Shown here in pieces: positions 1,430 through 57,098 of a stretch of DNA of 64,000 nt. The DNA comes from Candidatus Alkanophaga volatiphilum (GTDB lineage Archaea; Halobacteriota; Syntropharchaeia; Alkanophagales; B39-G2). Each line of letters opens with the position of its first letter. Within the stretch, counting starts at the first letter, position 1. The stretch spans positions 5,601 through 69,600 of the forward strand of contig JAPHEE010000002.1 in the NCBI GenBank assembly GCA_029259545.1, given 5' to 3'. Under the pieces are notes generated by a model. It was not told where the DNA came from and ran no database searches. It saw only the letters and a program-made list of their open reading frames with translations. Made by a program: the position numbers and the translations under genes.

Positions 1430-1828
1430 ATGCGGGTGGAGCTGGATGATGTGGAATACGTCACGGAAACGACGCTTACGATCCGGGGCACTCGGCGACG
1501 CACCACCGTGCCGAAGGTCATCGTTGAGAGGCTCGGGCTGCGGAACGGCGACAAGATCCGGTGGGTTCTCTTCAAGGACGGCAGCATCCTCGTCACGGGG
1601 GTCAGGAGGCGGGTGAATGGAGCGAATAATAACTGCGGCGGTGGTGGGACTCATAGCTCAGGTGATCGACGGGGCCCTTGGAAACGGGCTTTTAGCCCGC
1701 CAGAGTGGCCTACGGGGTCACCTCCACAACCTTCCTGCTCAGCCTCGGAGTCCCACCAGCGGCGGCGAGCGCAAGCGTCCACACCGCTGAGATTTTCACG
1801 AGCGGGGCGTCCGGGCTCTCGCACCTGA
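1430..1828 (+). CDS. AbrB/SpoVT-family DNA-binding protein (3' end uncertain)
   Basis: MRVELDD...RRRTTVPKVIVERLGLRNGDKIRWVLFKDGSILV matches the swapped-hairpin AbrB motif. The frame stays open to 1828 and overlaps the next gene, so the C-terminal ~65 codons may not be biologically meaningful. Confidence 0.55.
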   Translation: MRVELDDVEYVTETTLTIRGTRRRTTVPKVIVERLGLRNGDKIRWVLFKDGSILVTGVRRRVNGANNNCGGGGTHSSGDRRGPWKRAFSPPEWPTGSPPQPSCSASESHQRRRAQASTPLRFSRAGRPGSRT

Positions 1829-3662: not shown

Positions 3663-4490
3663 ATGCGTCGTGTTGAGGTCATTGGAATTGAAGGGATGCC
3701 GGAAATTAGACCCGGAGACGATCTCGCCGCCATTTTCTTAAAGGCTCTTCGGGAGAAAGACATTTTCCTCCAGGACTATGACGTCGTGGTTTTCGCCTCC
3801 AAGGTCGTTGCGAAGAGCGAGGGGCGGATCGTCGATCTTTCGGGCGTGAAGCCGGACGCCGCTGCGGAAAAACTCGCTGCCATTACAGGCAAAGATCCAA
3901 GAATCGTCCAGCTCATTCTCAACGACGCCGCCGAAATCATATGCGTCGGCGAGGACTTCATTCTTACGGAGACGAAACACGGCTTCATCTGCGCAAACGC
4001 CGGCATCGACGAGTCGAACGTCGAACACGGGAAGGCGGTACTGCTGCCCGAAGACCCTCAGAGGAGCGCAGCGGTGCTCCGCCGTAAAATAGAGGCGGCA
4101 ACCGGAAAGAAGATCGCAGTTCTGCTTGCGGACTCCTGCGGACGCCCCTTCAGGATCGGCGTCGCCGGTACGTGCGTTGGCTTCGCAGGAATGAAACCCA
4201 CGCTCGACAGGCGTGGCGAGAAGGACCGCTTCGGTAAGACCGCTAGGATCACGATCGTTGCGATCGCCGACGAAATCTGCGCGGCGGCGAACCTCGTCAT
4301 GGGCGAGCTTCAGGAGGGCATACCTGCTGTCATCGTCCGAGGACTGCGCTTCAAGCTTGACGAGGAGCAACAGAGTGTGAAGACGCTGTTCTTTGACAAA
4401 AGACGGGATGTGTTCAGAACTCTTGCTTGCAAACAACATTTTTTGGCGGTCAAAAATCTCCGTGAGGGTCAGAACACTCTCAAATCTTGA
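3663..4490 (+). CDS. cofE: coenzyme F420-0:L-glutamate ligase
   Basis: VVVFASKVVAKSEGR, FICANAGIDESN and LLADSCGRPFR are typical CofE motifs. Confidence 0.8.
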   Translation: MRRVEVIGIEGMPEIRPGDDLAAIFLKALREKDIFLQDYDVVVFASKVVAKSEGRIVDLSGVKPDAAAEKLAAITGKDPRIVQLILNDAAEIICVGEDFILTETKHGFICANAGIDESNVEHGKAVLLPEDPQRSAAVLRRKIEAATGKKIAVLLADSCGRPFRIGVAGTCVGFAGMKPTLDRRGEKDRFGKTARITIVAIADEICAAANLVMGELQEGIPAVIVRGLRFKLDEEQQSVKTLFFDKRRDVFRTLACKQHFLAVKNLREGQNTLKS

Positions 4491-4515: not shown

Positions 4516-5109
4516 TTAAGGGTGGCCGTGTGGCCACATCAGCGGGCGTGGCGGGATGCCCCTGTCGATGCCGGGACGCAGATCGAACTTCTTGGCGTAG
4601 TACTTGAAGTACGGGCTGTCCGTGTGCTGTGCGGTGTGTATCGAGTCTCTCAGGTCCATGAGCGCCGTGAAGTTCCCGATAACTGTGGCGGTGCCGTCGC
4701 AGACGGCGTCGGTGAGCGTGATCTCCCCGAGCAACGCCCGCACGAGCGTGTAGTAGCTGCGGAACGTCACAACGGCATCCACTTCTATGTTGGAGCCGGG
4801 CTCGGGGGCGCCCTGCACGACGGTTGCCGGCGACAACCTGAACCGCACGTACTCGACGCCCCGCTTCGGGTGCTTCGTCACTATGAGGATGGATCTGGGC
4901 GGGTACAACGACGTTTGCATCACCGTATCCGGGTCTGATGCCATCTTATTGATGAAGTAGTCGAAGAGCAGCTCGTAGAGCGTAGGCTCGTGGTCCTTGA
5001 GGTTAATCCACTCCACATCCTTCCACCAGCCGTCGGGCAGCGGCTTGGTCCTTTCAATTATATGCTCCTTCTCCGTCTCAGGGTAAATTTGTCCGAGTTC
5101 CTCCGCCAT
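4516..5109 (-). CDS. SCP2-like (sterol-carrier/alkyl-binding fold) protein occupying the mcrA slot
   Basis: Lies 9 nt downstream of mcrG-like 5119..6012 with its own AGGTGA Shine-Dalgarno sequence. The C-terminal part, DAVVTFRSYYTLVRALLGEITLTDAVCDGTATVIGNFTALMDL, resembles the SCP2 domain pattern. I see no similarity to McrA, McrC or McrD. Confidence 0.45.
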   Translation of the reverse strand: MAEELGQIYPETEKEHIIERTKPLPDGWWKDVEWINLKDHEPTLYELLFDYFINKMASDPDTVMQTSLYPPRSILIVTKHPKRGVEYVRFRLSPATVVQGAPEPGSNIEVDAVVTFRSYYTLVRALLGEITLTDAVCDGTATVIGNFTALMDLRDSIHTAQHTDSPYFKYYAKKFDLRPGIDRGIPPRPLMWPHGHP

Positions 5110-5118: not shown

Positions 5119-6012
5119 CTACCCCTCAGGACTCGTCCGCTCTCTTGAGCCCGGGAGGAGCATCTCCGGCTCTATCCACTCTTCACCCTCGTTGATATAA
5201 AGCCCACCGTATTCTACGAGCGGCAGCTCGGGATTGTGACCCATGAGCACCCTACCAGCGGCAGCCCTGCCAAGCACCGTCAAAATCTCAGAGCGGCTCT
5301 TGTAGGGAGCGACGTCCCAACGGTAAGTGACGTCGTATGCCCGCAGCTCACGCTCGGTCAGCGGACGCCCTACTGGTATCGGGTTGTCGAGAACCTCGGC
5401 GTGCTGGTTCTTGATGTACTCGACCTCGCCTGTCTCTTTGTTTAGCATGTAACGGCGACGGGCGTCGAACATCAAACCGTCCTCGTCGAGACGAAGCGAA
5501 TGCCCGTGCACGGTAACGCCCCGAATGCCCACCCTAGCAGGGTCAAAGATGTGCGTCTCGATAAGCATCTTCGCCGCCTGCTCAAGGTCCCGCTCCCGCA
5601 TTTCAAGGAGCGTCCTTCCGGAGTAGACGACGGTGTCAATTCCTCTTAGCCTTGACATGTAAACACGAGCCCTAAGCCATGGTGCCATCGGCGGGTAATA
5701 CATGGAGTCGGCAAACTGGAGGAAACGCAAGCGGTCACCAGCCCTCGCTCCAGGTGTTGGCTCTACTATCTCCTTTATTGGATCGTACTTCTCGACAAGC
5801 TCATCTAGCGGTGGGTGTACGCTCACATAGGATTCGCCTTTGAATCTGTGCCCCAGAAGTTCCACAAGGCTGTCATCAGGAATGGAGCGGAACTTCGTGA
5901 GTCGCTTTGAGGAGTCCATTGCCCTCCTTCTGTTCGCCGACACCCTGTCAGGTCCCGGGTAGTACTGCCTCTTATACTTAACTTTCTTGACCTTCTTCTT
6001 AGCAGCCGCCAT
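5119..6012 (-). CDS. mcrG: methyl/alkyl-coenzyme M reductase gamma subunit-like (set 1)
   Basis: LLGHR, VHPPLDE, YSGRTLLEMRERD and HGHSLRLDEDGLMFDARRRY are typical McrG blocks. It carries an extra Lys-rich N-terminus (MAAAKKKVKKVKYKR) and a C-terminal extension. Confidence 0.85.
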   Translation of the reverse strand: MAAAKKKVKKVKYKRQYYPGPDRVSANRRRAMDSSKRLTKFRSIPDDSLVELLGHRFKGESYVSVHPPLDELVEKYDPIKEIVEPTPGARAGDRLRFLQFADSMYYPPMAPWLRARVYMSRLRGIDTVVYSGRTLLEMRERDLEQAAKMLIETHIFDPARVGIRGVTVHGHSLRLDEDGLMFDARRRYMLNKETGEVEYIKNQHAEVLDNPIPVGRPLTERELRAYDVTYRWDVAPYKSRSEILTVLGRAAAGRVLMGHNPELPLVEYGGLYINEGEEWIEPEMLLPGSRERTSPEG

Positions 6013-6026
6013 TTCGCACCCCTCTC

Positions 6027-7406
6027 TTAAACCTCATCCTTTATCTTCTCAGCAGCCTCAGCCACCCTCTTCATCGGGTTCCTAAATATCGGGAACTCTT
6101 GGGCTATTGTGAAGTACAAGCCCGAGGTCGTGGTAACCTTGAATATCTGCGTTCCGGCGTCAAGACACGCACACGCAGCCGAAATGGGCGTCAAGAAGCC
6201 AGACGTGTTCTTAACGATAACGTGGTCGCAGGAGAATGCGCCTGGGGCGGCGCCGCCGTAAAGACCGTGCGTGTAGAACACATAACCCTGCCCGCAGCCG
6301 AGCATGCGTCCAGCGTCTGGGTCTGGTAAGCCACAGGTCTCCCAGATGAGCATGTCCGGGAAGAATGCGATTACGCTCGCAACTCCTTGGACGGCACGGG
6401 CGGCAGCACAGTTAACAATAGCGGCAGCTGTCAGGCCTGCTATGGAATAAGCGTTCCACAGGCATAGGTCCGGTGCAGCCCACACAACTGCTCCCGAAGG
6501 CAATACCCATGGGTACTTGTCGCCCTTCTTTACTATCACACCGTCCTCAAGCGCTCTCTGCAGCATGCTCGTCATGACATCCCCAACAGTCCCTTTCGCA
6601 TTTTCCTTTATCAGATCAAGAACCAGACAATTTGCATTGAAGCCCTGATACGCCGACGTCAGGAGCATGTAACGCTCATACCAGCCGACATTGTAGCCCA
6701 TTTCTGCCGCCGCTCCTTGTTCAAGGATTGTACCTATGGCAAGCGCCCACATCGTCCGCATGTCAGCGAGCGCCGCAATGTGGTTGATCATTATGGACTT
6801 GAGTCCATTACCTAAGCCCTCCAGCTCTGAAGGCAGCTTCAAAAGCGGGCGAATTGGGTGCCCCGGCGGCGTCCCGACCGTCTGCGGATATCTACCCCAC
6901 AATGCCGACTTCACCAGTCCGATCTTGTACAAGTTCTCCAAGGGGTGCAAATTTGCTATTTTCGTTATTATCTGACCGAGTGCGGTCACAACTCTCGTAA
7001 ACGCTGGCGAAGTGTCATAAGAACGATTTAAGACTTCATCCGAGAGCTGGACTACGAGGATCGTACCGCCCTCAAGCACCCGTACCTCAGTCCCATCGTC
7101 GGGCCTCACCTGTAAGAGCTTGACAAGCTCATCTGCAATGTATTCGGCGTTATCCACGAGCTCGACATCGAAACCGTACCACGGCATCTTTATCTCGTCC
7201 TGCCCAACTATTGTGGACCAGCCAACTCTGCCCGTCCTGAGCATGTCCTCCAGCTTCTCAAGCTCAATGACTGTCGTCCTCTTCATGAACCTGTAAACCT
7301 CACCCATGTAGGGGTTCTTGTAAGGATGCAACGCCTCTATCGGTATGTCCTTTGCAAGCAGGTTCCCCTCATCGTCGTACAGGTCAACCTTGTCCTCGTA
7401 TTTCAT
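6027..7406 (-). CDS. mcrB: methyl/alkyl-coenzyme M reductase beta subunit-like (set 1)
   Basis: DKVDLYDDEGN, ERYMLLTSAYQGFNAN, FYTHGLYGGAAPG and CLDAGTQIF are typical McrB blocks. Full length at 459 aa. Confidence 0.85.
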   Translation of the reverse strand: MKYEDKVDLYDDEGNLLAKDIPIEALHPYKNPYMGEVYRFMKRTTVIELEKLEDMLRTGRVGWSTIVGQDEIKMPWYGFDVELVDNAEYIADELVKLLQVRPDDGTEVRVLEGGTILVVQLSDEVLNRSYDTSPAFTRVVTALGQIITKIANLHPLENLYKIGLVKSALWGRYPQTVGTPPGHPIRPLLKLPSELEGLGNGLKSIMINHIAALADMRTMWALAIGTILEQGAAAEMGYNVGWYERYMLLTSAYQGFNANCLVLDLIKENAKGTVGDVMTSMLQRALEDGVIVKKGDKYPWVLPSGAVVWAAPDLCLWNAYSIAGLTAAAIVNCAAARAVQGVASVIAFFPDMLIWETCGLPDPDAGRMLGCGQGYVFYTHGLYGGAAPGAFSCDHVIVKNTSGFLTPISAACACLDAGTQIFKVTTTSGLYFTIAQEFPIFRNPMKRVAEAAEKIKDEV

Positions 7407-9956: not shown

Positions 9957-10640
9957 TTAACTTCTGCTACAAACACGCCATTTCAGCAGAACGCCATCAT
10001 CGAGCCTCTCAACACTCAGAAGCTCTAACTTCAAAAAATTATCTACGAAGCCCTCGCCGTCCACGAGCGTCGGCGCATTCGCGCCGCCGATTATCATGTT
10101 GCCGACGAAGACGTACAGCTCGTCTACGAGGCGCTGCGAGAGAAGCGACCAGTTAAGCGTGGCGCCGCCTTCCACCATGAGGCGGCGGACACCGTAATCG
10201 TCGTACAGTATGCTGAGAAGTTTTCTCAAATCCACCTTGCTCTCGCCGCATATGACCACATCTGCCTTCTGCTCCAAAGCTTTGACACGCTCCATCGGCG
10301 CCCTTTTCGAGACCGCCACCAGCCGCCCCCCTACACCTTTATTCAAAATTTCTGCGTTCAGAGGCGTCCTCGCCCTGCTGTCCACGACGACTCTTATCGG
10401 ATTCTCATCCTTACCAGCTTTTCTACGTTCCGCTCGCAGTCGCTCGGACTTCACAGTCAGTGACGGGTCGTCAGCAAGGACGGTACCAATGCCGACGAGC
10501 ACGGCGTCGCTGCCCGCCCGCAGGGCGTCAACACGCTCAAGGTCGCGGGCGCCGCTTATCCTCACCTGACGCCGCTCCACCGTCGAGATTTTGCCGTCGG
10601 CGCTCATCGCCGCATTTATGAAGACGAACGGTCTTCCCAT
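9957..10640 (-). CDS. arfC: 2,5-diamino-6-ribosylamino-4(3H)-pyrimidinone 5'-phosphate reductase (RibD C-terminal type)
   Basis: FINAAMSADGKIS, GIGTVLADDPSLTV and LMVEGGATLNWS. The track ORF 9957..10895 is trimmed to MGRPFVF. Confidence 0.8.
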   Translation of the reverse strand: MGRPFVFINAAMSADGKISTVERRQVRISGARDLERVDALRAGSDAVLVGIGTVLADDPSLTVKSERLRAERRKAGKDENPIRVVVDSRARTPLNAEILNKGVGGRLVAVSKRAPMERVKALEQKADVVICGESKVDLRKLLSILYDDYGVRRLMVEGGATLNWSLLSQRLVDELYVFVGNMIIGGANAPTLVDGEGFVDNFLKLELLSVERLDDGVLLKWRVCSRS

Positions 10641-23200: not shown

Positions 23201-24874
23201 TCACCTTGACGGTATGATGGGGTTGCGTTCGCCGGCGGGCATGAACTCGCGGAGGGCGCCGCGGGCGATGCACGCCCTTATGTTTCGGAAGTCGAAGACG
23301 AGGTCGGGGTCGGCGAACGCCACCTTTATCACCGGCGACAGCCCCCACGCGTCCATCCGCGCCTCGTGCGCCGCAACGACCGCCGGCGACGTGAAGAACT
23401 GGGAGTCTGCGAGGTAGGAGCGGAACGGGACGTTCGGTCCGTGGAGTTCGACGGGCATGCCCTCGTCGATGAGCACCGACGGCAGGATGCCGAACGAGTT
23501 GTGGTGGTGCGTCTCCTGCCCGCCCCAGCCCGTACGCAGCAGCAGCTCCTTGTGGATCAGCGTCAGAGCGTGATGAGCGGCGAGCGCCCCCGCATACGCA
23601 CTGCCGGTCGCCCATGCGGCGCAGACGCCCGCCATCATCGCGATGAACAGGTTTTTGATGAGTCCCCAGTGGTGCTCCAAGAGCACGGGGTATTTGTCGT
23701 AGTCCTCGCAGCAGTGGAGCACCGCCTCCCGCGCGCACTCGTGGATCACGTCCCAGCCCGGCGACACGCCCGCAAAGCCGTACCTGTCACGAACCCACCC
23801 CGCAAGGTGCTCGCCCCAGCCCTCGAACGTCTCGTTGAGGTAGTACACGGAGGCGCCGACGGTGACGCCGACCGACCCTATCATCTGCTGCCCGTAGTAC
23901 CACTGCATGTACAGGACTTTTTCGAGGGCGACGCCCTCCGCCGTCACCGGGACTGGCGATTCTGGCATTTTCGAGGGGTGCTGCACGATGTCGAAGATGT
24001 AGCCGCACGGGAGTCCGACGGGGTTGTTGTGCCCGTGCGCCCGTGAGGGGAACGGCGGGGTTCCGATGAACACGTACTGGGCGTGCTTCGCCGAGAAAGC
24101 GAAGTCTGAGATGGTGGACTCGCCGGCGCAGAGGCGGTAGGCGGCGATGAACGCCATGGTTTGCGCCATGGCGTTCCAGCGGTGCACCATGGCGCCGTCC
24201 ATGCTCCGTATTGCGTGCGTCGGCAGCCTCGAGACCTGCCAGAGGGAGGCGCCGACGCCTTTTTTGAGCTTTGCCGCCCTCTCGGCGTCGAACTCGCGGT
24301 CGATGTCGATGAGGAAGCGTCTGTCGAGCTTTGATGCGAGCTCGTCGCTGCCGGTGAAGGTTTTGACGTAGGCGTCCGGGGCGAGGGCGGGGTTGACCTC
24401 CACCATGTGCTCTTGGGCGACGGCGCCGCCGACGAGCGTGTGGTTTATGGTTTCGAGGTAGATGTTGATGGTTTCGGGGGTGACCTCGCGCCCGTAGCGG
24501 TTCGTGAGCACGCGGTGCGGCAGATCCAAGCACGTGATCGCCGTCCTGAAGATGTCGTCGCGGAGCTGCTGCATCGCCGCGTTGTTCAGCACGTGCAGGT
24601 CCTCGTACTCGCAGAGCACATCCGTCCCGCTCACCCGCACCGGCTCCAGAAACCGCTCGCCCACCGGGACGCCCAGCCCCAGCTCGTCACAAATCCGATC
24701 CGGATTGTACGACGGGATCCCCCGCCCCTCCGCTATCCTGCGAGCCGCCTCGATAAACTCAGACTTCCGCCTCGACTGACGACGACCCCCGTACTTATGA
24801 AACTTCGAGTCTTTAAGCTCCGACGGCAAGACTCCGTACGTCTCCTCAAGAATCTTTAAAAATTTCTTCTCCAT
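23201..24874 (-). CDS. mcrA: methyl/alkyl-coenzyme M reductase alpha subunit-like, divergent (set 2)
   Basis: NNAAMQQLRDDIFRT, REVTPETIN, GGAVAQEHMVE, AKHA and DEGMPVELHGPN are McrA blocks. The substrate-channel blocks are substituted (see findings). Confidence 0.85.
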   Translation of the reverse strand: MEKKFLKILEETYGVLPSELKDSKFHKYGGRRQSRRKSEFIEAARRIAEGRGIPSYNPDRICDELGLGVPVGERFLEPVRVSGTDVLCEYEDLHVLNNAAMQQLRDDIFRTAITCLDLPHRVLTNRYGREVTPETINIYLETINHTLVGGAVAQEHMVEVNPALAPDAYVKTFTGSDELASKLDRRFLIDIDREFDAERAAKLKKGVGASLWQVSRLPTHAIRSMDGAMVHRWNAMAQTMAFIAAYRLCAGESTISDFAFSAKHAQYVFIGTPPFPSRAHGHNNPVGLPCGYIFDIVQHPSKMPESPVPVTAEGVALEKVLYMQWYYGQQMIGSVGVTVGASVYYLNETFEGWGEHLAGWVRDRYGFAGVSPGWDVIHECAREAVLHCCEDYDKYPVLLEHHWGLIKNLFIAMMAGVCAAWATGSAYAGALAAHHALTLIHKELLLRTGWGGQETHHHNSFGILPSVLIDEGMPVELHGPNVPFRSYLADSQFFTSPAVVAAHEARMDAWGLSPVIKVAFADPDLVFDFRNIRACIARGALREFMPAGERNPIIPSR

Positions 24875-24887
24875 CCCGGCAACCCTC

Positions 24888-25661
24888 CTATTTCCCGTTT
24901 ATTAAGTCGGGTCTAAGCCCACCCAGCACCCGCAGCTCGCCTATCCGCTTCACGACCTTCATAAGCTCGTCGGCGACGGTCGGCGGCACGTGATCGAAGC
25001 GATAGACGGTCGCCATCTTCTTAAGCTCCTCTTCAGGTAGCGGCGGACCCACAGGCACTGGCTCCTCAAGCGGCACGGACTGCTGCGTCTTCACGTAGAC
25101 GACCTCACCCCGCTCCTTGTCGTATATATAACGGCGGCGGGCGTCGAACATCAAACCGTCCTCGTCGAGACGGAGCGAGTAGCCGTGGACGGTGATCGAA
25201 CGCAGAGCGCAGCGTGCCGTGTCGAACATCTCAGTCTCCAGCAGCGTCTTCGCCACCCGGTCGATGTCGCGCTCCCTCATTTCGAGGAGCGTGCGCCCTG
25301 AGTACGCAAGGGAGTCAAAGCCCCGGAATTCTCTGTTCGTCGCATATATCCGGAAGCGGAGCCACGGCGGCAGCGGCGCAAAGTGCTGAGAGTCCGTAAA
25401 CTGAATGTAACGGATGCGGTCGCCGTGTCGGGCACCGTCGGTGGGCTCTACAAGCTCCTTTATCGGGTCAGGCGGCTCCTTTATCTCATCTAATGGGGGA
25501 TGTACGCTAGAGTATGCCATTCCTGGCTTCCTGTGCCCCAAAAGCTTCACTATGTCGTCATCTGAAATCTCTCTCAGTTTCTTAGGCTTAAAATCCGGGT
25601 CAAGCCATTTGCGACGACGCTCCGCAATCTCATCAGTACCTGGATATGGAATTCCTACCAT
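24888..25661 (-). CDS. mcrG: methyl/alkyl-coenzyme M reductase gamma subunit-like (set 2)
   Basis: LLGHR, VHPPLDE, YSGRTLLEMRERD and HGYSLRLDEDGLMFDARRRY. Confidence 0.88.
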   Translation of the reverse strand: MVGIPYPGTDEIAERRRKWLDPDFKPKKLREISDDDIVKLLGHRKPGMAYSSVHPPLDEIKEPPDPIKELVEPTDGARHGDRIRYIQFTDSQHFAPLPPWLRFRIYATNREFRGFDSLAYSGRTLLEMRERDIDRVAKTLLETEMFDTARCALRSITVHGYSLRLDEDGLMFDARRRYIYDKERGEVVYVKTQQSVPLEEPVPVGPPLPEEELKKMATVYRFDHVPPTVADELMKVVKRIGELRVLGGLRPDLINGK

Positions 25662-25670
25662 CTTACCACC

Positions 25671-27032
25671 TCACAACTTATCTTTAATCTCAGAGGCAGC
25701 CTCCGCCACGTATTTTATCGGCTGTTTCATCTCAGGCGGTAGTACGTCCCTTATCTTCATGTAGACTCCTGATGTCAGCTCCGGCGTGAACGTCTGTGTC
25801 CCGGCATCCATACACATCCCGGCGACGATACATGGCGCTATGAAGCCCCGTGAGTGTCTGAGTAACGGACCTGCTGGCGCATAAGCGCCAGGACCGGCGC
25901 CGCCGTATATGTTGTGCGTGTAGAAAGCGAAACCTATCGAGGTCCCGAGCACACGCCCGAAATCTAGGTCAGGTAGCCCCGTTGCCAACTTTATTATGTC
26001 GTTAAAAGCGTTTATCGTCGCCGGGGCGCCCTGCACTGCTCGCATAGCGCCGCAATTCACAATCACGGCGGCGAGTTGTCCTGCTGCCATATAGGCATTC
26101 CACAGGCAAGCGTCGTCGGTCTTGTAGATCTTAAAGCCTGACGGAAGTGTCTCCTTGACTTTGATCACGCCGTCTTCTTCAGCTCGTCTTATCAGGCTAA
26201 GAATCACGGTACCTATCGTACCGTCCTTCCCGTTTTCCTTAACAAGCTCGTATACCAAGTTATTTGCATTCAATCCCTGATACGCAAGCCTTAACAGATG
26301 ATAGCGCTCGTAAACCGGATGGATGGCGTCGCCGCTGTCGAACATCGCCAGCGTCTCGAGGATCGCAGAAAGCGCCACGCCGTTAAGCGTGTTCTTATTA
26401 GTGATGGCTACGATGTCGTTCACCATGTTCGTACGGAACGCAAGACCGACGCCGTCGAGCGCCGGCGGCCAGCCGCGTAACAGCCCTGTGACGGCGCCGC
26501 GCAGCGTTATCGACTGTGGATACCTGCCGAAAATTGCCGACTTTATCACGTTGGAGCCGTTGAACGGTGTTATGTTGAAAAGCTCGATAATGGCGTGCGC
26601 CGTCGCGACTCCGACGTTCACGGTCGCAGAAGCCCAATCGCTCGCCATGTACATTCGGAGGGTAGGCACCTGCACAAACAGAATTTCGCCACCACCGAGC
26701 ACATGCACGCTCGTGTCGTCATCGTCGCTCACCCGCACGTACCTATCAACAAGCTCGGCGATCTTCTCGGCGTTCTCTACGATCGGGAGGTCGAGCTCGA
26801 TGCCTGGGATTTGACACTCCTCGCCGACGCCCATTTCTCCACCCATGCGTCCGGAGCGTAATGAATCCTCAATCCTCCTCAAATTCACGATCACTGAACG
26901 CTTGAACGTTTCACAAATCTTCTTTATCGCCGGGTTATGCAGCGGGCTTATCGCGTCCAGCGGAATATCTTCCGCAATCCGCTCGCCCCGCTCATCGTGT
27001 AGGTCTATCCTATCTGGATGCCTAACAGCCAT
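25671..27032 (-). CDS. mcrB: methyl/alkyl-coenzyme M reductase beta subunit-like (set 2)
   Basis: [40 protein letters not shown] and CMDAGTQTF. Confidence 0.88.
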
Positions 27033-29804: not shown

Positions 29805-31514
29805 CTAAGCAAAAATTTCAGGATAGAGTTCATGGGCTTTGAAATGTATTATTCCTATCCTCGCCTTTAAGAACGCCTCGTATGTTTCTAATCTCCAGAG
29901 GTTTTCATCCGTAGGTATAAAATGCTTGTCTATGTATGCTCTGTATTCAGGTAGATACTCATGCGGAGGTCTATCACCAATTTCAGAGTTTACCTCCTTC
30001 TTTATAAATGTGATGTTTCCGATATTGTTTATAATAATGTCTCGATTATCTTCGATTTCTAAGTTCTCTTTTAGGAAATCTCTCGGAAATATGTGATGTC
30101 TGTCTAAGCCGTCAAAAGGTCTTATTTTGAGCCTTTCACCCGTCCAGTCAGTGGCATCGTTCTTGATTAACAAAACGTATAACAAGAAGAGGTAACTTCT
30201 ACCTTGTCTACCTCTAAGAACATTCATTTTCAGTCCAGCTTCTAGGTCTTCCCTACGAATCCTTATTGGAAGTCTTCGCTTTTCGATGTTGTTCATTAGT
30301 TCATCAAACGGAAAGTCTCGATGTGCTTTAATGATCCTTAAGTCCTCTTCGAGCTTTGTGTCGGTTTGCGAGCTGTAATACCCAATGAAGCTAACAAGCA
30401 CAAACCAGCTTTCGATCAGTTTGGCGAGATCTGAGTTAATTTGGTTGATGTTAGTAATGTCGTTGGATGAAAAGTATTTGGCTATCGTTATTAGCGGTAT
30501 CTGACTTGGCAAGATTCTCGTATCTTTTATTCCGAGATTATCTTCCAAGAACTTTGTTGTTAGTTTGAGAGCGTTACCCATTTTACTAACCTTCTTCTTT
30601 CTCGAGTCTTCATCAGTCTTTTGAATTTCATTGACAATCTTTCTAAATTTCTCAGCCTTTATATCTGACATCGGAATATCAAATTCCGATAAAATAGCTC
30701 TAATTACGGGTTGTAAATCGATCCTAAAGCGTTCTAAGTCTTTGTAGATTAGGACTATATCGTTCTTAAATGATCCTCTGATAGTACCAGCCAAGAAGGA
30801 TAAGATCATTTCTACATTGCCGATCTCTACACCGCTCTTATTTACCCTAACAAAGGCTTCAGCCATCTTCGAATACGTTCCTTCATTTTCATCGTACGTT
30901 TGTAAGATGTACAACGGAATCTGATAGTTTAAGATTCTATTGGCGATTTTACAAAGTTTGTCAAAGATTGCACTGTCTAGACGCTCACTTAACTTTCTGG
31001 ACATCTGAGGATCGTAAATCGGTGACCCCGCCACTGACCTCAATAGATCGTAGATGTTCACATACTTACTCGATTTGTACAATTTATAATCACTATCTCT
31101 TTTTTCAAGATTGATTGAGATCGGCATTCTTTCAATTTCTTCATCTTCTCTTGATATTTTCCAATTGTTAAACATAAGGAGCAAAGTAGTTAACCTCTGC
31201 TGACCATCTATCACATAATAAACTTCCTTATTGAAGTCCTTCTCGCCAATTATCGGTTTTGAAAAAGGGTCATTTTCATAAACGTTTCTTGATGGCTTCC
31301 AGAGGATTATGCTTCCTACGGGGTACCCATTTATCATGGAGTCTATGAATTCCTTCACATCCTCCTCATCCCAAACGTAATCCCTCTGAAAGGTCGGTAG
31401 TAAATACGTTTTAGTTTTTAATAGCTCTTCAACTAACTCCTTTACACCTCTCTTGCCCGCCTCTGGTATCAGATTCATACAGTAGTTGCTGGCGTAGGGC
31501 ACGTATTTAAACAT
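29805..31514 (-). CDS. GmrSD-like type IV (modification-dependent) restriction enzyme, DUF262 + DUF1524
   Basis: N-terminal FQRDYVWDEEDV and IDGQQRLTT (DUF262/ParB-like). C-terminal DRHHIFP...NNIGNITFI...N (His-Me finger/DUF1524). The gene is strongly AT-rich relative to its flanks. Confidence 0.75.
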   Translation of the reverse strand: MFKYVPYASNYCMNLIPEAGKRGVKELVEELLKTKTYLLPTFQRDYVWDEEDVKEFIDSMINGYPVGSIILWKPSRNVYENDPFSKPIIGEKDFNKEVYYVIDGQQRLTTLLLMFNNWKISREDEEIERMPISINLEKRDSDYKLYKSSKYVNIYDLLRSVAGSPIYDPQMSRKLSERLDSAIFDKLCKIANRILNYQIPLYILQTYDENEGTYSKMAEAFVRVNKSGVEIGNVEMILSFLAGTIRGSFKNDIVLIYKDLERFRIDLQPVIRAILSEFDIPMSDIKAEKFRKIVNEIQKTDEDSRKKKVSKMGNALKLTTKFLEDNLGIKDTRILPSQIPLITIAKYFSSNDITNINQINSDLAKLIESWFVLVSFIGYYSSQTDTKLEEDLRIIKAHRDFPFDELMNNIEKRRLPIRIRREDLEAGLKMNVLRGRQGRSYLFLLYVLLIKNDATDWTGERLKIRPFDGLDRHHIFPRDFLKENLEIEDNRDIIINNIGNITFIKKEVNSEIGDRPPHEYLPEYRAYIDKHFIPTDENLWRLETYEAFLKARIGIIHFKAHELYPEIFA

Positions 31515-36473: not shown

Positions 36474-37690
36474 CTTTAGGATAAATGTTGCTGCTAATCC
36501 CCATCTTTTCAAAGATGGGATATAGCAGGGGAGGTGGGTGGTAATATTTAGTAGAAGAACTATACTAAAAATGATGGAAGTGACAAAGACGATCAGGTGC
36601 AAGCTGATCGGTCTGACGAAGCGCAAGCAAGAGTTGCTTAATAGAGAGTATGACAACTTCCAGCACTGGCTCGAGACGGGCGAGGACAGAGGCGTGTATT
36701 CAGCATACAAGCAGGATGCGAGGTGGCTGTACAAGAAGGCGAGGCGGATGAAAGGTGTTCCCATAAGGAAAGACTTGATAGACATTCAAAGAAGAGACAC
36801 GAAAATAGCAAAATACTGGGCGAGGATAAGGGTAAAAGGTGTGAGAGGAGGCGTTGGTCGCACTCGCTCATCAACATTTCAATTTTGAGGCGTGGAGAGT
36901 ATGTGAATCTCTGCTCGTCAGGAGGGATGGAGATTTCTATCTTTATGTTACGGTCAAGAAGGATGTCGAGCTGGAGAAAGAATATGCATCCATCATAGCA
37001 ATAGACCTAGGGGCCAAATGGGTTGCCGTGTCGGTGGCACGGCACCGCAGTAAACCGAAGTTCTACGGCAGAAGGGTGAGAGGGGCTCGTGGAAAGTATT
37101 TCTGGTTGAGGCGAAAGTTGGGCAGAGAAAAGAAGCTGAGGGTGATAAAGAAGATCGAGGGCAAGGAGCGGAGGATCGTGAACGACGAGCTCCACAAGAT
37201 AGCAAAGGACATCGTTGAAGAAGCAGAGAAACACGACGCAATAATAGCGATTGGTGACTTGAAAGGCGTCAGAAACAAGAGGCGAGGAAGAAAGGCAAAC
37301 AGGAAGGTCAACTCAATGCCATCGCACAAACTAAGGGAATACATCAAGTATAAGGCACTTGAGCGAGGCATTCTGGTGATAGAAGTTCCCGAATATAACA
37401 CATCGAAGCAGTGTTCGAGGTGCGGCTCGATGCGAACTGAAAGACCTTCTCAGGGAGTTTTCATCTGCGAGGATTGTGGCTACCAGATTAATGCCGATGT
37501 GAACGGAGCTAAAAATTTATTAAAACGAGCCCACGCCTACATGGTGTGGGCAGGGGCTGCGGTGACCCAGCCCGAAGGGGAGCGGTTCGTCCTGAGCCAC
37601 ACTCCCCAACCTCTCGCATCCGGCGGATGCCCCTTCAGTGAGGGGAGGAGGTCACTCGTACCTGCATGCTCTCTCTTAATCCTCTGAAGG
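36474..37690 (+). mobile_element. IS200/IS605-family element carrying tnpB only (no tnpA)
   Basis: The left end AAATGTTGCTGCTAA...GATGGGATATAGCAGGGGAGGTGGGTGG and the 3' structured region GGGGCTGCGGTGACCCAGCCCGAAGG...GAGGAGGTCAC...GCTCTCTC recur in short copies at 38.4, 40.8 and 60.9 kb. Confidence 0.7.
36571..37687 (+). pseudogene. tnpB: TnpB RNA-guided nuclease homologue with a frameshift near 36850
   Basis: RuvC-like IAIDLG, EVPEYNTSKQCSRCG...CEDCG zinc finger and NADVNGAKN. The N-terminal 95 codons (track ORF 36538..36888) are in a different frame from the remainder (36854..37687). Confidence 0.75.
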
Positions 37691-51546: not shown

Positions 51547-51954
51547 ATGGGGAAGCTCACGTTTAAGGCGTATTTTGACGCGTTGCGTGAAGGGAAGCTG
51601 CTTGGACTGAAATGCAAGGCGTGCGGGAAGGTCACATGCCCGCCGATGAGCGTGTGCCAGGAGTGCGGCGCCGACGAGCTTGAGGTCGTGGAGATGAAGA
51701 ACAGCGGCGTGATAAAGACGTTCACGGTGATCCACGTGGCACCAGCGGGGCTCGAAAACGAGGCTCCCTACGTCGTCTGCGAGGTCGAGACCGACGACGG
51801 TCCCTGGCTCGTGGGCAGGCTGGACATAAAGCCGGAGGAGGCGTCCATAGAGCTCGTAGGCAGGAGAGTCACTATTACGGGGCAGGAGCTACCGCCCGAG
51901 CGCCATTATCCGGACAAGGAGCGGCGGGTCGTCCCGCTGTTCAAACTCTCTTAA
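51547..51954 (+). CDS. Zn-ribbon / OB-fold protein (DUF35), thiolase partner
   Basis: CKACG...CQECG ribbon plus an OB segment. Typical archaeal pairing with the thiolase. Confidence 0.75.
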   Translation: MGKLTFKAYFDALREGKLLGLKCKACGKVTCPPMSVCQECGADELEVVEMKNSGVIKTFTVIHVAPAGLENEAPYVVCEVETDDGPWLVGRLDIKPEEASIELVGRRVTITGQELPPERHYPDKERRVVPLFKLS

Positions 51955-51985
51955 CTATTTTTAGGGACGGTACCAACCTTCTTCG

Positions 51986-52624
51986 GTGGTGAGCGTCAGC
52001 CGGGACCGTTGGGAAGCAGAGAATGTGGAAGGCGGGCTGCTCGTCTGCGGGGATTGCCTTGAGTGGTTGAGGAACAACAGCGTGGAAGTGCACCTCACGT
52101 TTCTGGACCCGCCGTTCCGTCAGGGCAAGGATTACCGGTATTTCGACGACAATCAGCCTGAGGACGTTTACTGGAACTGGCTTGAGGAGGTCGTCGCCCG
52201 TGTTTACGAGCTGACGGCGGGCGGCGGCGCCATCTACTTCATGCATCGTGAGAAGAACGCCGAGCACGTCCTGAGGACGCTCAGAGAGACGGGCTGGACG
52301 CTCCAGAACCTCATAGTCTGGAAGAAGCGGACCTCCGCAGTCCCCTACGCTCATGGCTTCTCGAAGGCGTACCAGATAATCGCGTTCGCCACGAAGGGCA
52401 AGAAGCCTCGGGTGTTCAATAGGCTGCGTGTCGATTACCCGCTGCTCCCAGAATACAAGTATCCGAGGGAAAACGGGATTTTCGTAACCGATGTCTGGGA
52501 TGACATCCGTGAGTTGACTTCGGGATATTTCGCCGGTGAGGAGGCGATCAGAGATGAGAAAGGAAACAGGGTGCACACGCAGCAGTCGCCAGTCGCCCTG
52601 CTCCTCGGTTCTGTTGAATCTTAG
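51986..52624 (+). pseudogene. N-terminal fragment of a beta-class DNA methyltransferase (DPPF motif IV)
   Basis: LTFLDPPFRQG...HTQQSPVALLL, then the frame leaves homology at 52607 and stops. Motif I is found 2.4 kb downstream at 55045 onward. Confidence 0.75.
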
Positions 52625-52633
52625 GGTGTTGCA
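52607..52633. repeat. left arm of 27-bp imperfect inverted repeat bounding the AT-rich cassette
   Basis: GGTTCTGTTGAA-TCTTA-GGGTGTTGCA matches the reverse complement of 55036-55062 at 24 of 27 positions. Confidence 0.85.
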
Positions 52634-52650
52634 TTTGTGATGTTGCAAGT

Positions 52651-53718
52651 GTGGTGGTAGAAAACTTCAAAAAAGAATGGAACCCATTTAGTTATAAGGT
52701 GCGTAAAATGTCTGATAAGGGCAGTAATAATGGAAAAAATAAAAACTTAGAGGGCATTAAATGGGTCGTAAAATTTCCAGTCGACACTTTGCAAATTTAT
52801 TTCCCATGTTCTTTAGAACTTCAAGATGAACTAATAAAAAGAGGTTTTAAAGTCCCTGGTGATAAAAGCAGAAAAATAAAAACACCGATACCATTGATTT
52901 ACTCGAATTTTAGAGGATGGTTAGTCCAACCAGAACCAATAACAATTGAAAGGTTAATTCCACCAGAATGGTATGGAAAAACTGCTAAAGAATTAGGTTG
53001 GAAGGAAACTATTAGCAGAGGTAAAACGGCATATCATTTACCACAGGAAGAAGTTTGGGTCAATATTGGCTTTGATAACAATGGTTTAATACACTTTAAG
53101 TTAGATATAAGAGGCTATCATCTTGAAAGAACATCTATAAGAGGTATAAATCCTGAAAAATGGAATAACTGGGCAATGTTTTATATAAGTGCAGAATATT
53201 TAGACGATTTGATAAATACCATTGCCAAGTTTCTCAATGTAACTTTAGCACGGAAATTATATCCAATTTTAGAGAAACAGCAAGGTGGAAAAGAGAAAAC
53301 ATATTATGCTTCGCCTACGCGGAGTAAAAGTCTGGGTATACCGGTAATAAATTATAGTTTATGTCTCGGGTGTTTCGATCTTGCATTACTATACTTTAAA
53401 CATAAATCAATTGAAAATAACCTAAACCCAGATATAGTCAAGGAGCTTAAACTTCGAATAACATACGAACCTACCATAAATGCAGGTTTAAAAGTTGGGA
53501 TTGCAAAGATTGAAGGAAAACGGCCTCAAATAATGTTTAAATTAGCTTCAAATACGCCCATTCAAATTAAAGGCATCCTAAAACCTATTATTGAAGGTAA
53601 AGCTAGGGGTAATCTCTGTTTTTGTAATCATCGATCAAAAACCCAACTAATCATAGCTAGGGCATTGGATATTTATTCTGCATTGTCAGTAACGAAACAG
53701 AAGTTAAAAGATCTTTAA
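52651..53718 (+). CDS. hypothetical protein, candidate restriction endonuclease of the inserted cassette
   Basis: AT-rich 355-aa ORF, convergent with the cassette methyltransferase and overlapping it by 4 nt. No catalytic motif recognised by eye. Confidence 0.4.
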   Translation: MVVENFKKEWNPFSYKVRKMSDKGSNNGKNKNLEGIKWVVKFPVDTLQIYFPCSLELQDELIKRGFKVPGDKSRKIKTPIPLIYSNFRGWLVQPEPITIERLIPPEWYGKTAKELGWKETISRGKTAYHLPQEEVWVNIGFDNNGLIHFKLDIRGYHLERTSIRGINPEKWNNWAMFYISAEYLDDLINTIAKFLNVTLARKLYPILEKQQGGKEKTYYASPTRSKSLGIPVINYSLCLGCFDLALLYFKHKSIENNLNPDIVKELKLRITYEPTINAGLKVGIAKIEGKRPQIMFKLASNTPIQIKGILKPIIEGKARGNLCFCNHRSKTQLIIARALDIYSALSVTKQKLKDL

Positions 53719-54632
53719 TGCTTTTTATTTTTCTTCTTTTGCAGTTTTTCATTAATAACTTTTCTTAACTTAGTTCGTAAATGTTTTGCATCATCTCTAA
53801 TAATGAACTCTACTTTTACACTTTTTACACCTTCTCCATAGAATGTTAGAAGAGTTTTAGTCTTGAGTCCTAATCTCTTCTCTATGATAGGCTTAAGTTC
53901 TAAATCTATTTCATAACCGATACTATTTCTATTTAACTCTTTGGCAACAACAGCAGTTGTTCCAGTTCCAAGGAAAGGATCTAAAACTATTTCTCCTACA
54001 TAACTATAGAGTTTTATCAATCTCTCTGCTAATTCCTCAGGAAATACTGCTGTGTATTTACTTATGTCATTTGACGGCAAGACATTTGTTATCTCCCACA
54101 TTGACAGGTACCACTTCTCATTTTGAAATTTGCTTAAGGGTATTTTTGATTGCTCTTTCAAGGATTGGGATATTCTACTATAATTAAATCTTCCTTTTTG
54201 AAAAATCACTATTTCTTCGTAAATGTTATCTGGATAATAGTACATGGGATATGGATGTTGAATTAAAACGCCACTTCTCCTACTTATTCTTATATACCCC
54301 TCTGGTTTTTTCCAAATAATCTTATCTCTGTATTTGAATCCTATTTCTCTCATTATTTTAATTATGTCGCTAACTATAGGGTATAGCTCTCCATCGATTC
54401 TTACATCTTGAATTACGAAACATGCAATTCTTCCTTCAGATAATACTCTATAAATTTCTTTACCAACACTTTTAATTAATTCCAAATATTCCTCATAGTT
54501 TTTGAACAATCCGGGAAAATCGAATGGAGCGTTAAAGTAAGGTGGCGAAGTTACAACAAGATGTATCGAGTTATCTGCTAGCTCTTTCATTCTTCTGGCA
54601 TCTCCAAATATTATTTTATGTGTTGTGCTCAT
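53715..54632 (-). CDS. beta-class DNA methyltransferase (SPPY motif IV, probably N4-cytosine or N6-adenine)
   Basis: LVVTSPPYFNAPFD near the N-terminus and LDPFLGTGTTAVVA near the C-terminus. AT-rich. Confidence 0.85.
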   Translation of the reverse strand: MSTTHKIIFGDARRMKELADNSIHLVVTSPPYFNAPFDFPGLFKNYEEYLELIKSVGKEIYRVLSEGRIACFVIQDVRIDGELYPIVSDIIKIMREIGFKYRDKIIWKKPEGYIRISRRSGVLIQHPYPMYYYPDNIYEEIVIFQKGRFNYSRISQSLKEQSKIPLSKFQNEKWYLSMWEITNVLPSNDISKYTAVFPEELAERLIKLYSYVGEIVLDPFLGTGTTAVVAKELNRNSIGYEIDLELKPIIEKRLGLKTKTLLTFYGEGVKSVKVEFIIRDDAKHLRTKLRKVINEKLQKKKNKKH

Positions 54633-55345: not shown

Positions 55346-56278
55346 GTGAGCGCCGCAAAGCTCCTGAGGGAGGGGAAGCTCAGCCTGAACGATAGGTTGG
55401 AAAGAATTGTGCTGGTAGCGGTTAGGGACAAGCTGGCTTACGCCGACGACCGCCGGTGTGCGAGGGACGTGGGCTTCGACTTCTGGGAGCCTTTGAGGAG
55501 TCGAATGTCAGAGGAAAAGTTTGAAGCCACCTTGAGGGAGGCAGGAGTGACGAGACCCTATTCAGCGTCGAACCTTTTCCTGGATTTCCTGTTCCGAACG
55601 AAAGAACATGGCGGCAAGCCGAGCCGTGAGAGCGTGCTCGAACTCAAGGATTCAGCAGGCGGCAGCATCGCATCCTTCAACTCGATCGAAGTGGAAAAGC
55701 TTGGAGGAAATGGATGCGATAAACGGGGCGAGCCCGAGCTTGGTGTCACGGATCGCATCCCTGATGGATGGAATTCCGCTGAGCCACGGGGGTACCTGAA
55801 GTTCGAGCGCAGGTGCTTCTACCTCGTGCGGACGCATCGCAACAAGGCTAACGTCAAGCTCTCCATTGTGGACGGCTCCTTCTTCGAGACGGTCCCCAAG
55901 GAGCATCTGCTCTACCGGCTGTTCATGCAGGTGCTGCGAGCGCACATTGAGAGCAAGCGGGTGGAGATATCGAAAGAGGAGCTCGAAATCGTCGAAAGGA
56001 CCCTCAGGCACATCACCGATCAGAGAATCATCGCAGGCTCGAAAATCATAGAGGGCGCCTCGGTCAAGCCGCGGCTGCGGGTGATGGCGGAGGTGCATTC
56101 CGAAGGCAACCCGCACAGCCACCATTACGAAATCCCGGAGCGGAGCTTCAACCTCATCTTGGAAAAGACGAGGGAGGCGGAGCGGCTTGAAAGCTCTCTG
56201 GAAGGGCTCGACGTCGAAACCTTCACGATCCTCCATAAGAGGAACGGCGAGCACGTGGTGTTTTCGTTGCAGCTTTAA
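55346..56278 (+). CDS. hypothetical protein, possible partner (endonuclease?) of the resident split methyltransferase
   Basis: GC-rich 310-aa ORF starting 25 nt after the methyltransferase fragment. No motif recognised. Confidence 0.35.
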   Translation: MSAAKLLREGKLSLNDRLERIVLVAVRDKLAYADDRRCARDVGFDFWEPLRSRMSEEKFEATLREAGVTRPYSASNLFLDFLFRTKEHGGKPSRESVLELKDSAGGSIASFNSIEVEKLGGNGCDKRGEPELGVTDRIPDGWNSAEPRGYLKFERRCFYLVRTHRNKANVKLSIVDGSFFETVPKEHLLYRLFMQVLRAHIESKRVEISKEELEIVERTLRHITDQRIIAGSKIIEGASVKPRLRVMAEVHSEGNPHSHHYEIPERSFNLILEKTREAERLESSLEGLDVETFTILHKRNGEHVVFSLQL

Positions 56279-56300
56279 AGTCGCATTCTAAAAGACGTTC

Positions 56301-56708: not shown

Positions 56709-57098
56709 CTGTCGTCCTCTCTCTACTTGCCGCAATCGCTTCACTGGACAAGATGCGAAGTTTGCATACGAGACGACACGTAATGGCTTCGGGACAAAGA
56801 AGCATTTTTATCATCCCGTTGCTTGCAAGACCCCATAAGCGTGGGGATACGCAAGGGGGAGGCGGGCGGGTAGTTAAATACTTTGAAGTTGTATGGTGTA
56901 ACGACCCCGTAATAGCCGTTAGGGCTGCCGTAAGGGCTGGTAGAAGTAGCCCGTGAGCCGTAAGGATAGTGGGTAGTGGCGGCGTGAGCCGGGGGATAAG
57001 GCTCGTAAAGAGCAAACTCCCCACGCAGCCCCTTGCGAAGCGAGGGGTAGTTCACGATACCAAGGTCTAGTCACCTTGGGCTGAGGAGAGGATAGACA

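Follow-up and report, generated by a model that had tools for sequence, protein, structure and literature searches.

The 64,000-nucleotide (nt) stretch of DNA analysed here (contig JAPHEE010000002.1 of Candidatus Alkanophaga volatiphilum, positions 5,601 to 69,600; hereafter the window) carries a TauE/TSUP permease gene that spans 1617–2388 on the forward strand and is interrupted by 22 nt at 1684–1705. We propose, with a probability of roughly 0.85, that this insert is a functional bulge-helix-bulge (BHB) intron in the permease pre-mRNA, its splicing being predicted from the sequence. TauE is thus very probably, as judged from sequence comparison, only the second family of protein-coding genes for which a need for BHB splicing is known in Archaea. 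A first-pass annotation of the window had already read the insert as a BHB intron, and comparison of seven interrupted genes now strongly supports that reading, with splicing as a prediction. The gene content of the window is archaeal (methyl-/alkyl-coenzyme M reductase, TFIIB, Thg1, and F420 ligase), and Alkanophaga belongs to the class Syntrophoarchaeia, beside ANME-1, and has been grown at 70 °C (PMC10322722).

All bases and coordinates in the permease gene were re-read directly from the window sequence, and every base, helix, bulge, and coordinate given in the first-pass annotation proved correct. The gene is laid out as follows (aa, amino acids).

1604–1609, forward strand: Shine-Dalgarno-like AGGAGG, 7 nt 5' of the exon 1 start codon by sequence reading
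1617–1683, forward strand: exon 1, starting with ATG 1617; 22 codons (MERIITAAVVGLIAQVIDGALG, the first transmembrane segment) plus the A of the Met23 codon
1706–2388, forward strand: exon 2; UG of Met23, then AYGVTSTT... to the stop TGA 2386–2388; 227 codons including Met23

The downstream permease frame opens after TAG 1693–1695 and ends at TGA 2386–2388, and in the unspliced window message the exon 1 frame would give a 57-aa peptide only. Excision of 1684–1705 yields a protein of 249 aa that matches the Pfam TauE profile over nearly its full length (E = 5.4e-41, profile positions 2–236 of 237), which agrees with the Met codon and the permease of about 249 aa that had been expected from the join. 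The Met23 codon is split between its first and second base. The junction sits in the motif DGALG/MAYGV (a slash marks the junction here and below), in which M23, A24, Y25, and G26 are invariant in an alignment with 17 homologues. Among all 22-nt excision registers, Met at residue 23 results from 1684–1705 only; neighbouring registers give Val, Lys, or Asn. The Met23 register coincides with the one obtained when each bulge of the predicted fold is cut behind its second nucleotide; the elements of this fold are listed below.

1672–1676, forward strand: outer helix h, 5' strand, in exon 1; GGCC 1673–1676 pairs with GGCC 1707–1710, extendable by G1672-U1711
1678–1681, forward strand: central 4-bp helix H, 5' strand; UUGG, in codons Leu21-Gly22; partner 1700–1703
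1682–1684, forward strand: 5' bulge AAA; predicted 5' splice site between 1683 and 1684
1684–1705, forward strand: predicted 22-nt BHB intron ACGGGCTTTTAGCCCGCCAGAG, the excision register that restores the frame and Met23
1685–1690 with 1694–1699, forward strand: inner helix h', CGGGC(U)/(A)GCCCG, 6 bp, with a UUU loop at 1691–1693
1700–1703, forward strand: central helix H, 3' strand; CCAG, in the intron
1704–1706, forward strand: 3' bulge AGU; predicted 3' splice site between 1705 and 1706
1707–1711, forward strand: outer helix h, 3' strand, in exon 2; partner of 1672–1676

The core of this fold, a 3-nt bulge, 4 bp, and a 3-nt bulge on the opposite strand, has the canonical BHB geometry, and so do the cores of all seven variants described below. 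The canonical 3/4/3 core matters because alpha'2-type enzymes of the archaeal splicing endonuclease EndA need a strict 3-nt bulge (PMC12397907). Flanking helices are present on both sides, h' with 6 bp and h with 4–5 bp and a 1-nt offset that is a mild departure from the ideal motif; C1677, unpaired opposite the 3' bulge, is the single irregularity of the window motif. Archaeal BHB motifs are cut between the second and third bulge nucleotide (PMC2738675), which confirms the cleavage rule used in the first-pass annotation. In-silico cleavage at these positions followed by ligation restored both the frame and Met23 in all seven variants. The intron size of 22 nt also falls inside the 16–44 nt range of the proven introns in cbf5 (PMC2738675). 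In the predicted minimum free energy (MFE) fold, an extra helix (1662–1667 with 1716–1721, GUGAUC with GGUCAC, both coding) surrounds the whole BHB; it is present in both Alkanophaga lineages and not in other lineages.

Fold, register, and their evolutionary conservation are read from the sequences compared here, and from the known properties of EndA and RtcB we infer cleavage and ligation. The end of exon 1 (CUU GGA A) is complementary to the 3' portion of the insert, and their 4-bp central helix lies between two 3-nt bulges on opposite strands, with the intron-internal hairpin on one side of this helix and the exon 1–exon 2 helix on the other. EndA would then cut at 1683/1684 and 1705/1706, after the second bulge nucleotide, and RtcB ligase would join the exons, the 22-mer being released, probably as a circle. 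The join GGA A/UG GCC would create the AUG of the invariant Met23 and restore the frame, giving a normal permease of 249 aa. The spliced junction to be expected is CTTGGAA/TGGCCTAC, both for the window type and for contig JAPHEF010000018.1 of Candidatus Alkanophaga liquidiphilum.

The same site was found to be interrupted in seven distinct TauE genes, two of them from Ca. Alkanophaga lineages (Syntrophoarchaeia) and the other five from uncultured lineages. The five further interrupted genes were obtained by a metagenome pattern scan, in which both exon ends and a 12–42-nt gap splitting the Met codon were required, and by following up truncated or read-through homologues. Of the 40 loci in the scan, 27 were false positives with a 33-nt gap, representing ordinary genes with ...FLxAYGVPP after the motif, and nine further loci were unrelated chance matches. 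L155 (P0177), which looked like an exon-2-only call, is actually an uninterrupted gene. The inserts are of two lengths.

22-nt inserts: window, A. liquidiphilum type, L131, L132/133, L134, L152–154
32-nt insert: L126/127, with an inner hairpin unrelated in sequence

All seven genes have the h-B-H-B-h' fold (B, bulge) at the identical register and the in-silico splice product ...G/MAY, so that geometry and register survive even the complete replacement of the inner hairpin (22 nt versus 32 nt). Exon 1 is intact in every one of them, with a start codon, a ribosome-binding site, and the conserved VGxxAxxIDGxxG motif; in the relatives, GAGGAGGTGA or a similar sequence precedes the TTG start of TauE.

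Covariation was analysed in an alignment of the six 22-nt variants. Across the BHB helices, 96.4% of the cells were paired, versus 25–61% in slid controls. Six base pairs were changed on both sides, and the observed covariation score was reached by none of 500 shuffles. Pairing was complete (100% of cells) in the central helix and in the inner helix, where both-side changes affect four of the six pairs, and reached 87.5% in the outer helix across the 6 sequences. The central helix of L132 contains a compensated change that joins exon to intron: the exon codon CTT became ATC (U to C) and the intron strand CCAG became CCGG (A to G). RNAalifold, given the alignment alone, predicted h(5)-1 nt-H(4)-bulge(3)-h'(6)-loop(3)-h'-H-bulge(3)-h. 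The 5' bulge is AAA in all seven variants, and the 3' bulge in the relatives is AGU, AAU, or AUU, its middle base being free and its third base being the U of the AUG codon. The outer helix includes an unpaired base in six variants; L131 is the exception, its outer helix being strict, with 5 bp and no unpaired base.

The exon side of the fold also has a distinctive codon usage. Codon 21 is CTT in 6/7 intron-bearing genes versus 6/110 intron-less genes, and Gly22 is encoded by GGA in 7/7 versus 41/110. Judged by these codons, the exon bases that form helix and bulge are constrained solely in intron-bearing genes. Intron-less genes read GGN ATG GCN, with nothing between. One such gene, L130, is 98% identical to the intron-bearing L126 in exon 2 at the protein level and 94% identical in DNA. 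In a genome collection, 80 TauE loci (mostly bacterial, few archaeal) were all uninterrupted and at most 70% identical. The alignment with orthologues that the first-pass annotation had recommended has in this way yielded both intron-less orthologues and seven interrupted genes that keep the fold through double substitutions.

The closest comparison is with A. liquidiphilum, in which the 22-nt insert lies at the same place in the NCBI metagenome-assembled genome (MAG) contig JAPHEF010000018.1. The insert is also found in ENA and Logan assemblies of enrichment cultures and in JGI environmental contigs, and its occurrence in independent NCBI, ENA, Logan, and JGI assemblies rules out the assembly artefact that had been considered in the first-pass annotation. 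The TauE coding sequence (CDS) of the window is 89–91% identical to A. liquidiphilum-type genes, and the synteny is shared (metallo-beta-lactamase, AbrB/MazE-like gene, TauE, and DUF2103). The AbrB/MazE-like gene 5' of TauE, at 1430–1828 on the forward strand, has no stop where the A. liquidiphilum homologue (61 aa) ends; its frame is open for 132 codons in the window, covering TauE exon 1 and the intron in the third frame and reaching into exon 2. The A. liquidiphilum-type insert has three differences from that of the window, one in the loop, one G-C to G-U change in the inner helix, and one at the middle nucleotide in the 3' bulge.

Between the window and A. liquidiphilum-type genes, both insert-carrying, the ratio of nonsynonymous to synonymous substitution rates (dN/dS) in exon 2 is 0.20–0.22, implying that the gene stayed functional with the insert present. 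This bears on the possibility that the permease is a decaying pseudogene, disrupted either by an insertion or by an intron that the lineage's enzyme can no longer remove. Some observations fit such decay: the A. liquidiphilum MAG at NCBI has the exon 2 product only, exon 1 taken alone has a dN/dS of 0.66 from very few sites, and the BHB of the window is not the MFE structure. However, the two Alkanophaga lineages differ by about 10% in the CDS and both retain the insert, open exons, and an exon 2 dN/dS of 0.2; the three insert substitutions (loop, G-C to G-U, and bulge) are all structure-preserving; and five further lineages retain the arrangement with compensatory changes. We consider decay very unlikely, and the dN/dS of 0.2 together with the intact exon 1 in 7/7 genes excludes the ordinary pseudogene that had been named earlier as an outcome contradicting the intron.

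Existing annotation does not reflect the interrupted structure. The nearest database proteins, P0001 (91% identity) and the P0002 cluster (88%), have the N-terminus absent or the insert read through. The public records of the interrupted genes are all mis-modelled: some contain exon 2 alone, like the 225-aa A. liquidiphilum protein at NCBI (MDF2955414.1), and the others translate straight through the insert, giving for example MTGPLETGFKPAR-MAYGV. The entries concerned are listed here.

Mis-modelled entries: P0001, P0002, P0121–P0127, P0140, P0170, P0179, P0214

That gene callers predicted exon 2 by itself would also fit a genuinely split gene, in which a peptide with the first transmembrane segment (about 25–57 aa) and a 227-aa remainder, starting from an NTG codon that the insert creates at its 3' end, assemble in the membrane without splicing and the hairpin is an intercistronic element. 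In five of the seven variants the unspliced message would give a 25-aa peptide, which ends at a stop (TAA or TAG) in the hairpin loop, in the exon 1 frame and three codons past Gly22. The stops are at the following places.

L001 (A. liquidiphilum type): loop stop at ~9984–9989
L131: loop stop at ~4024–4029
L132: loop stop at ~6021–6026
L134: loop stop at ~4022–4027
L126: loop stop in the intron

The window and L152 have no loop stop in the exon 1 frame, and the TAG of the window lies in the other frame. The first codon of the downstream frame is moreover a possible start in all seven variants (GTG in four, ATG in two, and TTG in one). This is weak evidence, with an expectation of (3/4)^7 = 0.13, because three of four bases yield a start codon. 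A split gene is also difficult to reconcile with Shine-Dalgarno-like sequences that are strong at exon 1 and lacking before the downstream NTG of every variant, and with exon 1 tails that are unconserved and range from 25 aa to 57 aa or more. The break would fall within the most conserved motif of the family, and the kept 3-nt bulges, the 4-bp helix, and the exon–intron covariation over 22-nt and 32-nt inserts would be left unexplained. Two cooperating polypeptides therefore seem improbable to us.

Translational mechanisms were evaluated against the same features. In a bypass of the T4 gene 60 type, the ribosome would take off at the conserved GGA before the hairpin, skip the insert, and resume in the downstream frame. 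The GGA codon for Gly22 in 7/7 variants, located at the base of the hairpin, and the stop within 3 codons in 5/7 would suit this model, and the T4 cassette is likewise tied to a homing-endonuclease mobile element (10.1101/2022.08.31.505936), resembling the endonuclease association described below. On the other hand, the matched take-off and landing codons that define bypassing (10.1101/2022.08.31.505936) are present in only one of the seven: L132 would land on GGA, whereas the window and A. liquidiphilum have AGA at this position and L131, L134, L152, and L126 have AAA. The codon next to the take-off site is AAC or AAU rather than a stop or very rare codon, the stop lies three codons on in 5/7, and none is nearby in the window or L152. 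Resumption at the next codon would put Val or Leu in place of the invariant Met in 5/7, and the symmetric 3/4/3 geometry would have no role. Known cases come from bacterial phages and yeast mitochondria, and none has been reported in Archaea. Bypassing is thus about as doubtful as decay of the gene.

The remaining translational alternative is programmed +1/-1 ribosomal frameshifting inside the insert, which would give a permease with 7–11 extra residues. Both frames are indeed open and overlap for a few codons in some variants. Yet the 22-nt inserts need a +1 shift and the 32-nt insert -1 or +2, and the shift would have to occur after TAG 1693–1695 in the window and before the loop TAA in A. 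liquidiphilum, so that the permissible windows do not overlap. These opposite requirements, together with the non-overlapping shift windows of the two Alkanophaga lineages, are why frameshifting fails; in addition, no slippery site is common to the variants, and the product would have an insertion within the invariant motif. It is the least credible of the alternatives considered. A group I or group II self-splicing intron was ruled out by the size of 22 nt and the lack of Rfam matches in the window. A repeated element, resembling a miniature inverted-repeat transposable element or a repetitive extragenic palindrome, was not supported within the window either: the insert is unique there, with one match at up to 3 mismatches in the 64 kb.

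Several observations weigh against the proposed BHB intron. The outer helix of the window needs the 1-nt offset at C1677 and has otherwise 2 bp in strict register, and strict alpha'2/alpha4 enzymes might cut this motif less well. The BHB conformer of the window has a folding energy of -22.2 versus -23.3 for the MFE structure, that is, 1.1 kcal/mol above it; in three relatives, L001 (A. liquidiphilum type), L131, and L126, the BHB is the MFE structure. The folding energy of the hairpin is ordinary for its G+C content (z = -1.09) and is not usable as evidence. The covariation is based on only six or seven related sequences. The codon at the unspliced junction, being GTG, ATG, or TTG in 7/7, could start exon 2 in each case. 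No full-length protein of the spliced type, as transcript assemblies could yield, was found in a collection of 5.8 billion proteins, which is a weak negative. Finally, EndA and RtcB genes are not in the 64-kb window. Both are, to our knowledge, universal in Archaea, and their presence in the host is assumed for this reason.

A pattern scan of both window strands returned 1,559 loose BHB-like patterns and 114 of comparable quality, indicating that the motif alone is uninformative. The chance of such a motif at one position and length that restore both the frame and Met is 114/(128,000 x 109), or about 1e-5. It is this register and the comparative data, and not the bare motif or its energy, that carry the case. 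A filter for other frame-restoring BHB split genes in the window gave 273 hits, nearly all within ordinary genes, and was dropped as non-specific. ARAGORN and Rfam searches of the window found nothing, and there were no tRNA introns with which to compare the BHB style.

The intron-bearing genes are scattered over the TauE protein tree, each with closer intron-less relatives. Four pairs, with the intron-bearing member first, are as follows.

L126 and L130: 98% identity (exon 2 protein)
L134 and P0149: 90% identity
L131 and P0129: 84% identity
Window and P0009: 74% identity

In the first pair, L126 (minus strand, ~4303–4363) and L130 (1298–2005) show 94% DNA identity 3' of the intron and 55% in exon 1 and are unrelated further upstream. 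This sharp drop marks a recombination breakpoint at the intron. The L126/L130 lineage is placed only tentatively: a neighbouring gene has 25–33% matches to Nitrososphaerota/Caldarchaeales proteins.

In several lineages a gene with NUMOD3 and DUF559 domains lies immediately upstream of the interrupted TauE gene.

L131: 3186–4001, forward strand
L152: 1743–2492, forward strand; also in L153 and L154
L126: 4365–4850, reverse strand
L127: 12207–12977, reverse strand

In L126/127, L131, and L152–154 this gene overlaps the TTG start of TauE and provides its GAGGAGGTGA ribosome-binding site. Pfam scores are modest (NUMOD3 at 21.4 bits with a cut-off of 20.4, plus DUF559). Among PDB entries, 3r3p (I-Bth0305I catalytic domain) scores best, with E = 5.6e-5, ahead of Vsr enzymes. 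I-Bth0305I is the prototype of the Vsr-like (EDxHD) homing endonucleases, with an N-terminal NUMOD and a C-terminal Vsr-like nuclease (PMC3239194), and the upstream gene appears to share this architecture; on these modest scores we regard it as a candidate endonuclease gene. By tblastn against 156 sources, it was detected beside intron-bearing TauE genes only, in three TauE clades and at none of about 110 intron-less loci. This association is confounded by taxonomy because most intron-less loci are bacterial, and the window itself has no such endonuclease gene.

In L131 (1–4000), L132 (1–12702), L133, and L134 (1–4000), TauE is found among genes for ParB, MCM-like AAA, LAGLIDADG, HNH, and Rad51-like proteins and many small unannotated open reading frames (ORFs), and by this gene content the contigs look like plasmids, viruses, or integrated elements. 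Two pattern scans of the IMG/VR viral collection gave chance matches only, and tblastn against annotated phages and plasmids gave no phage match and only distant bacterial TauE genes on plasmids.

Taken together, the distribution, the upstream endonuclease gene, and the L126/L130 breakpoint hint at mobility of the intron. A tentative hypothesis, to which we would give somewhat less than an even chance, is that the mini-intron acts, at the level of RNA, as the patch for a mobile DNA cassette consisting of a free-standing Vsr-like endonuclease gene, a replacement TauE exon 1, and a BHB insert of 22–32 nt. Such a cassette might home into the conserved DGALG/MAYG-coding site of TSUP genes, where the insert would disrupt the endonuclease target and the tRNA-splicing enzymes of the host would render the insert harmless. 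The Alkanophaga copy in the window could then be a remnant that has kept the intron and lost the endonuclease. The CTT GGA exon codons travel with the intron, which we count as partly favouring this hypothesis, along with the scattered distribution of the intron-bearing genes and the location of several copies on contigs that resemble mobile elements.

In the literature examined, cbf5 is the sole gene for which a BHB intron in the coding region has been reported, besides an intron in the 5' untranslated region (UTR) of a Haloferax gene, and we found no report linking BHB with TauE. The first-pass annotation had named cbf5 as the only protein-coding host, in agreement with these reports, and had overstated the insert as a new substrate class. 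Because cbf5 and the HVO_1309 5' UTR had already provided mRNA substrates, TauE represents a new host gene and a new lineage, not a new class. The evidence supports an archaeal BHB intron in a second protein-coding host gene, with splicing as a prediction.

The cbf5 intron of Desulfurococcales and Sulfolobales (Watanabe 2002; Yoshinari 2006; Yokobori 2009, PMC2738675) resembles the TauE insert in several respects: it splits the codon of a conserved residue, is defined by a BHB, is patchily gained and lost, depends on the tRNA-splicing machinery, and is cut between bulge nucleotides 2 and 3. The differences are also clear. The cbf5 host gene encodes a pseudouridine synthase, whereas TauE/TSUP proteins are membrane transporters, and the cbf5 intron lies between the first and second base of a catalytic Asp codon, whereas here the Met23 codon is split, so the TauE insert is not a member of the cbf5 family. 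The cbf5 introns are found in Crenarchaeota, the TauE inserts in Syntrophoarchaeia (a euryarchaeal-type methane/alkane archaeon) and uncultured lineages. Most cbf5 motifs are relaxed and need a heterotetrameric enzyme, in contrast to the canonical 3/4/3 core in TauE, and next to some TauE copies, unlike cbf5, there is a gene resembling those of homing endonucleases. For cbf5 the splicing has been proven; for TauE it is a prediction.

Haloferax volcanii HVO_1309, with a BHB intron in its 5' UTR, likewise provides a euryarchaeal mRNA substrate of EndA and shows that strict-type EndA enzymes do process mRNA BHB motifs (PMC7714728). The intron is 46 nt long and lies in an untranslated leader, leaving the frame unaffected, whereas the TauE insert interrupts the CDS, its removal being obligatory for the protein. 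Archaeal tRNA and rRNA BHB introns share the recognition motif and presumably the enzymes, and the rRNA BHB introns with LAGLIDADG homing endonucleases show that BHB introns can be mobile via a DNA endonuclease. Their hosts are stable RNAs and their endonuclease gene lies inside the intron, whereas the TauE intron has 22 nt and contains no ORF; any endonuclease-like gene at a TauE locus stands by itself upstream of the permease gene and is of the Vsr-like (EDxHD) type.

The TauE loci also parallel T4 mobA/gene 60 (10.1101/2022.08.31.505936) and collaborative homing (PMC2790892; PMC6083498), in which a free-standing endonuclease gene is located near a short insert in a conserved coding site, a divergent stretch of the host gene between them has been replaced, identity breaks cleanly at the far end of the insert, and the insert is neutralised after transcription. 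Those systems use ribosomal bypass or group I self-splicing, whereas the protein-only tRNA-splicing pathway of the host is predicted for TauE. Outside the Archaea, the splicing of XBP1 (26 nt) and HAC1 mRNA by IRE1 and RtcB (PMC13149111) offers another parallel, in that a tiny mRNA intron is removed without the spliceosome by a protein endonuclease acting at paired stem-loops, the removal changes the frame, and RtcB performs the ligation in metazoans. The endonuclease in that case is IRE1, the recognition motif is a different one, and splicing is stress-regulated.

Other features of the window were recorded during the analysis. Two methyl/alkyl-coenzyme M reductase clusters are present.

5122–7406, reverse strand: beta and gamma subunits only, followed by a 197-aa ORF (4516–5109) without a Pfam match; no adjacent alpha subunit
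23204–27032, reverse strand: complete cluster in the order beta-gamma-alpha
29805–31514, reverse strand: protein with a GmrSD-type restriction endonuclease N-terminal domain
36538–36888 (116 aa) and 36854–37687 (277 aa), forward strand: TnpB/Cas12f-like gene (TNB domain) in two parts
53715–54632, reverse strand: N6/N4 DNA methylase
51941–53718 and 55346–60483: several ORFs of 200–665 aa without a Pfam match

The TnpB/Cas12f-like gene was considered as a second BHB-split gene and rejected, as it has no inserted hairpin; its split resembles a simple +/-1 frameshift in overlapping frames (pseudogene or sequencing error).

For more than 20 years, cbf5 has stood alone as an archaeal coding gene known to have an endonuclease-spliced intron, confined to some Crenarchaeota, and neither a 2020 study of Haloferax substrates nor a 2025 structural paper on EndA cites a coding-gene case besides it. 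The TauE insert would offer enzymes that are considered strict a canonical substrate motif within a natural mRNA. For annotators, it gives a concrete reason against labelling such interrupted genes pseudogenes. Transcriptomes of the relevant cultures are already public (PRJNA862876), so that the central claim is directly testable. If the endonuclease link is confirmed, it would explain the origin and spread of the mini-introns and tie BHB introns to the mobile-element logic of phages; a mobile cassette, if true, would be an archaeal equivalent, based on protein splicing enzymes, of collaborative homing and the T4 mobA/gene 60 bypass cassette. Since Archaea couple translation to transcription, a gene that must be spliced within its CDS poses the problem of how the unspliced message stays free of ribosomes, and further whether splicing is used to control expression. 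With a second host gene, found in an alkane oxidiser of euryarchaeal type as well as in several uncultured lineages, mRNA splicing by the tRNA-splicing enzymes would no longer be an isolated case.

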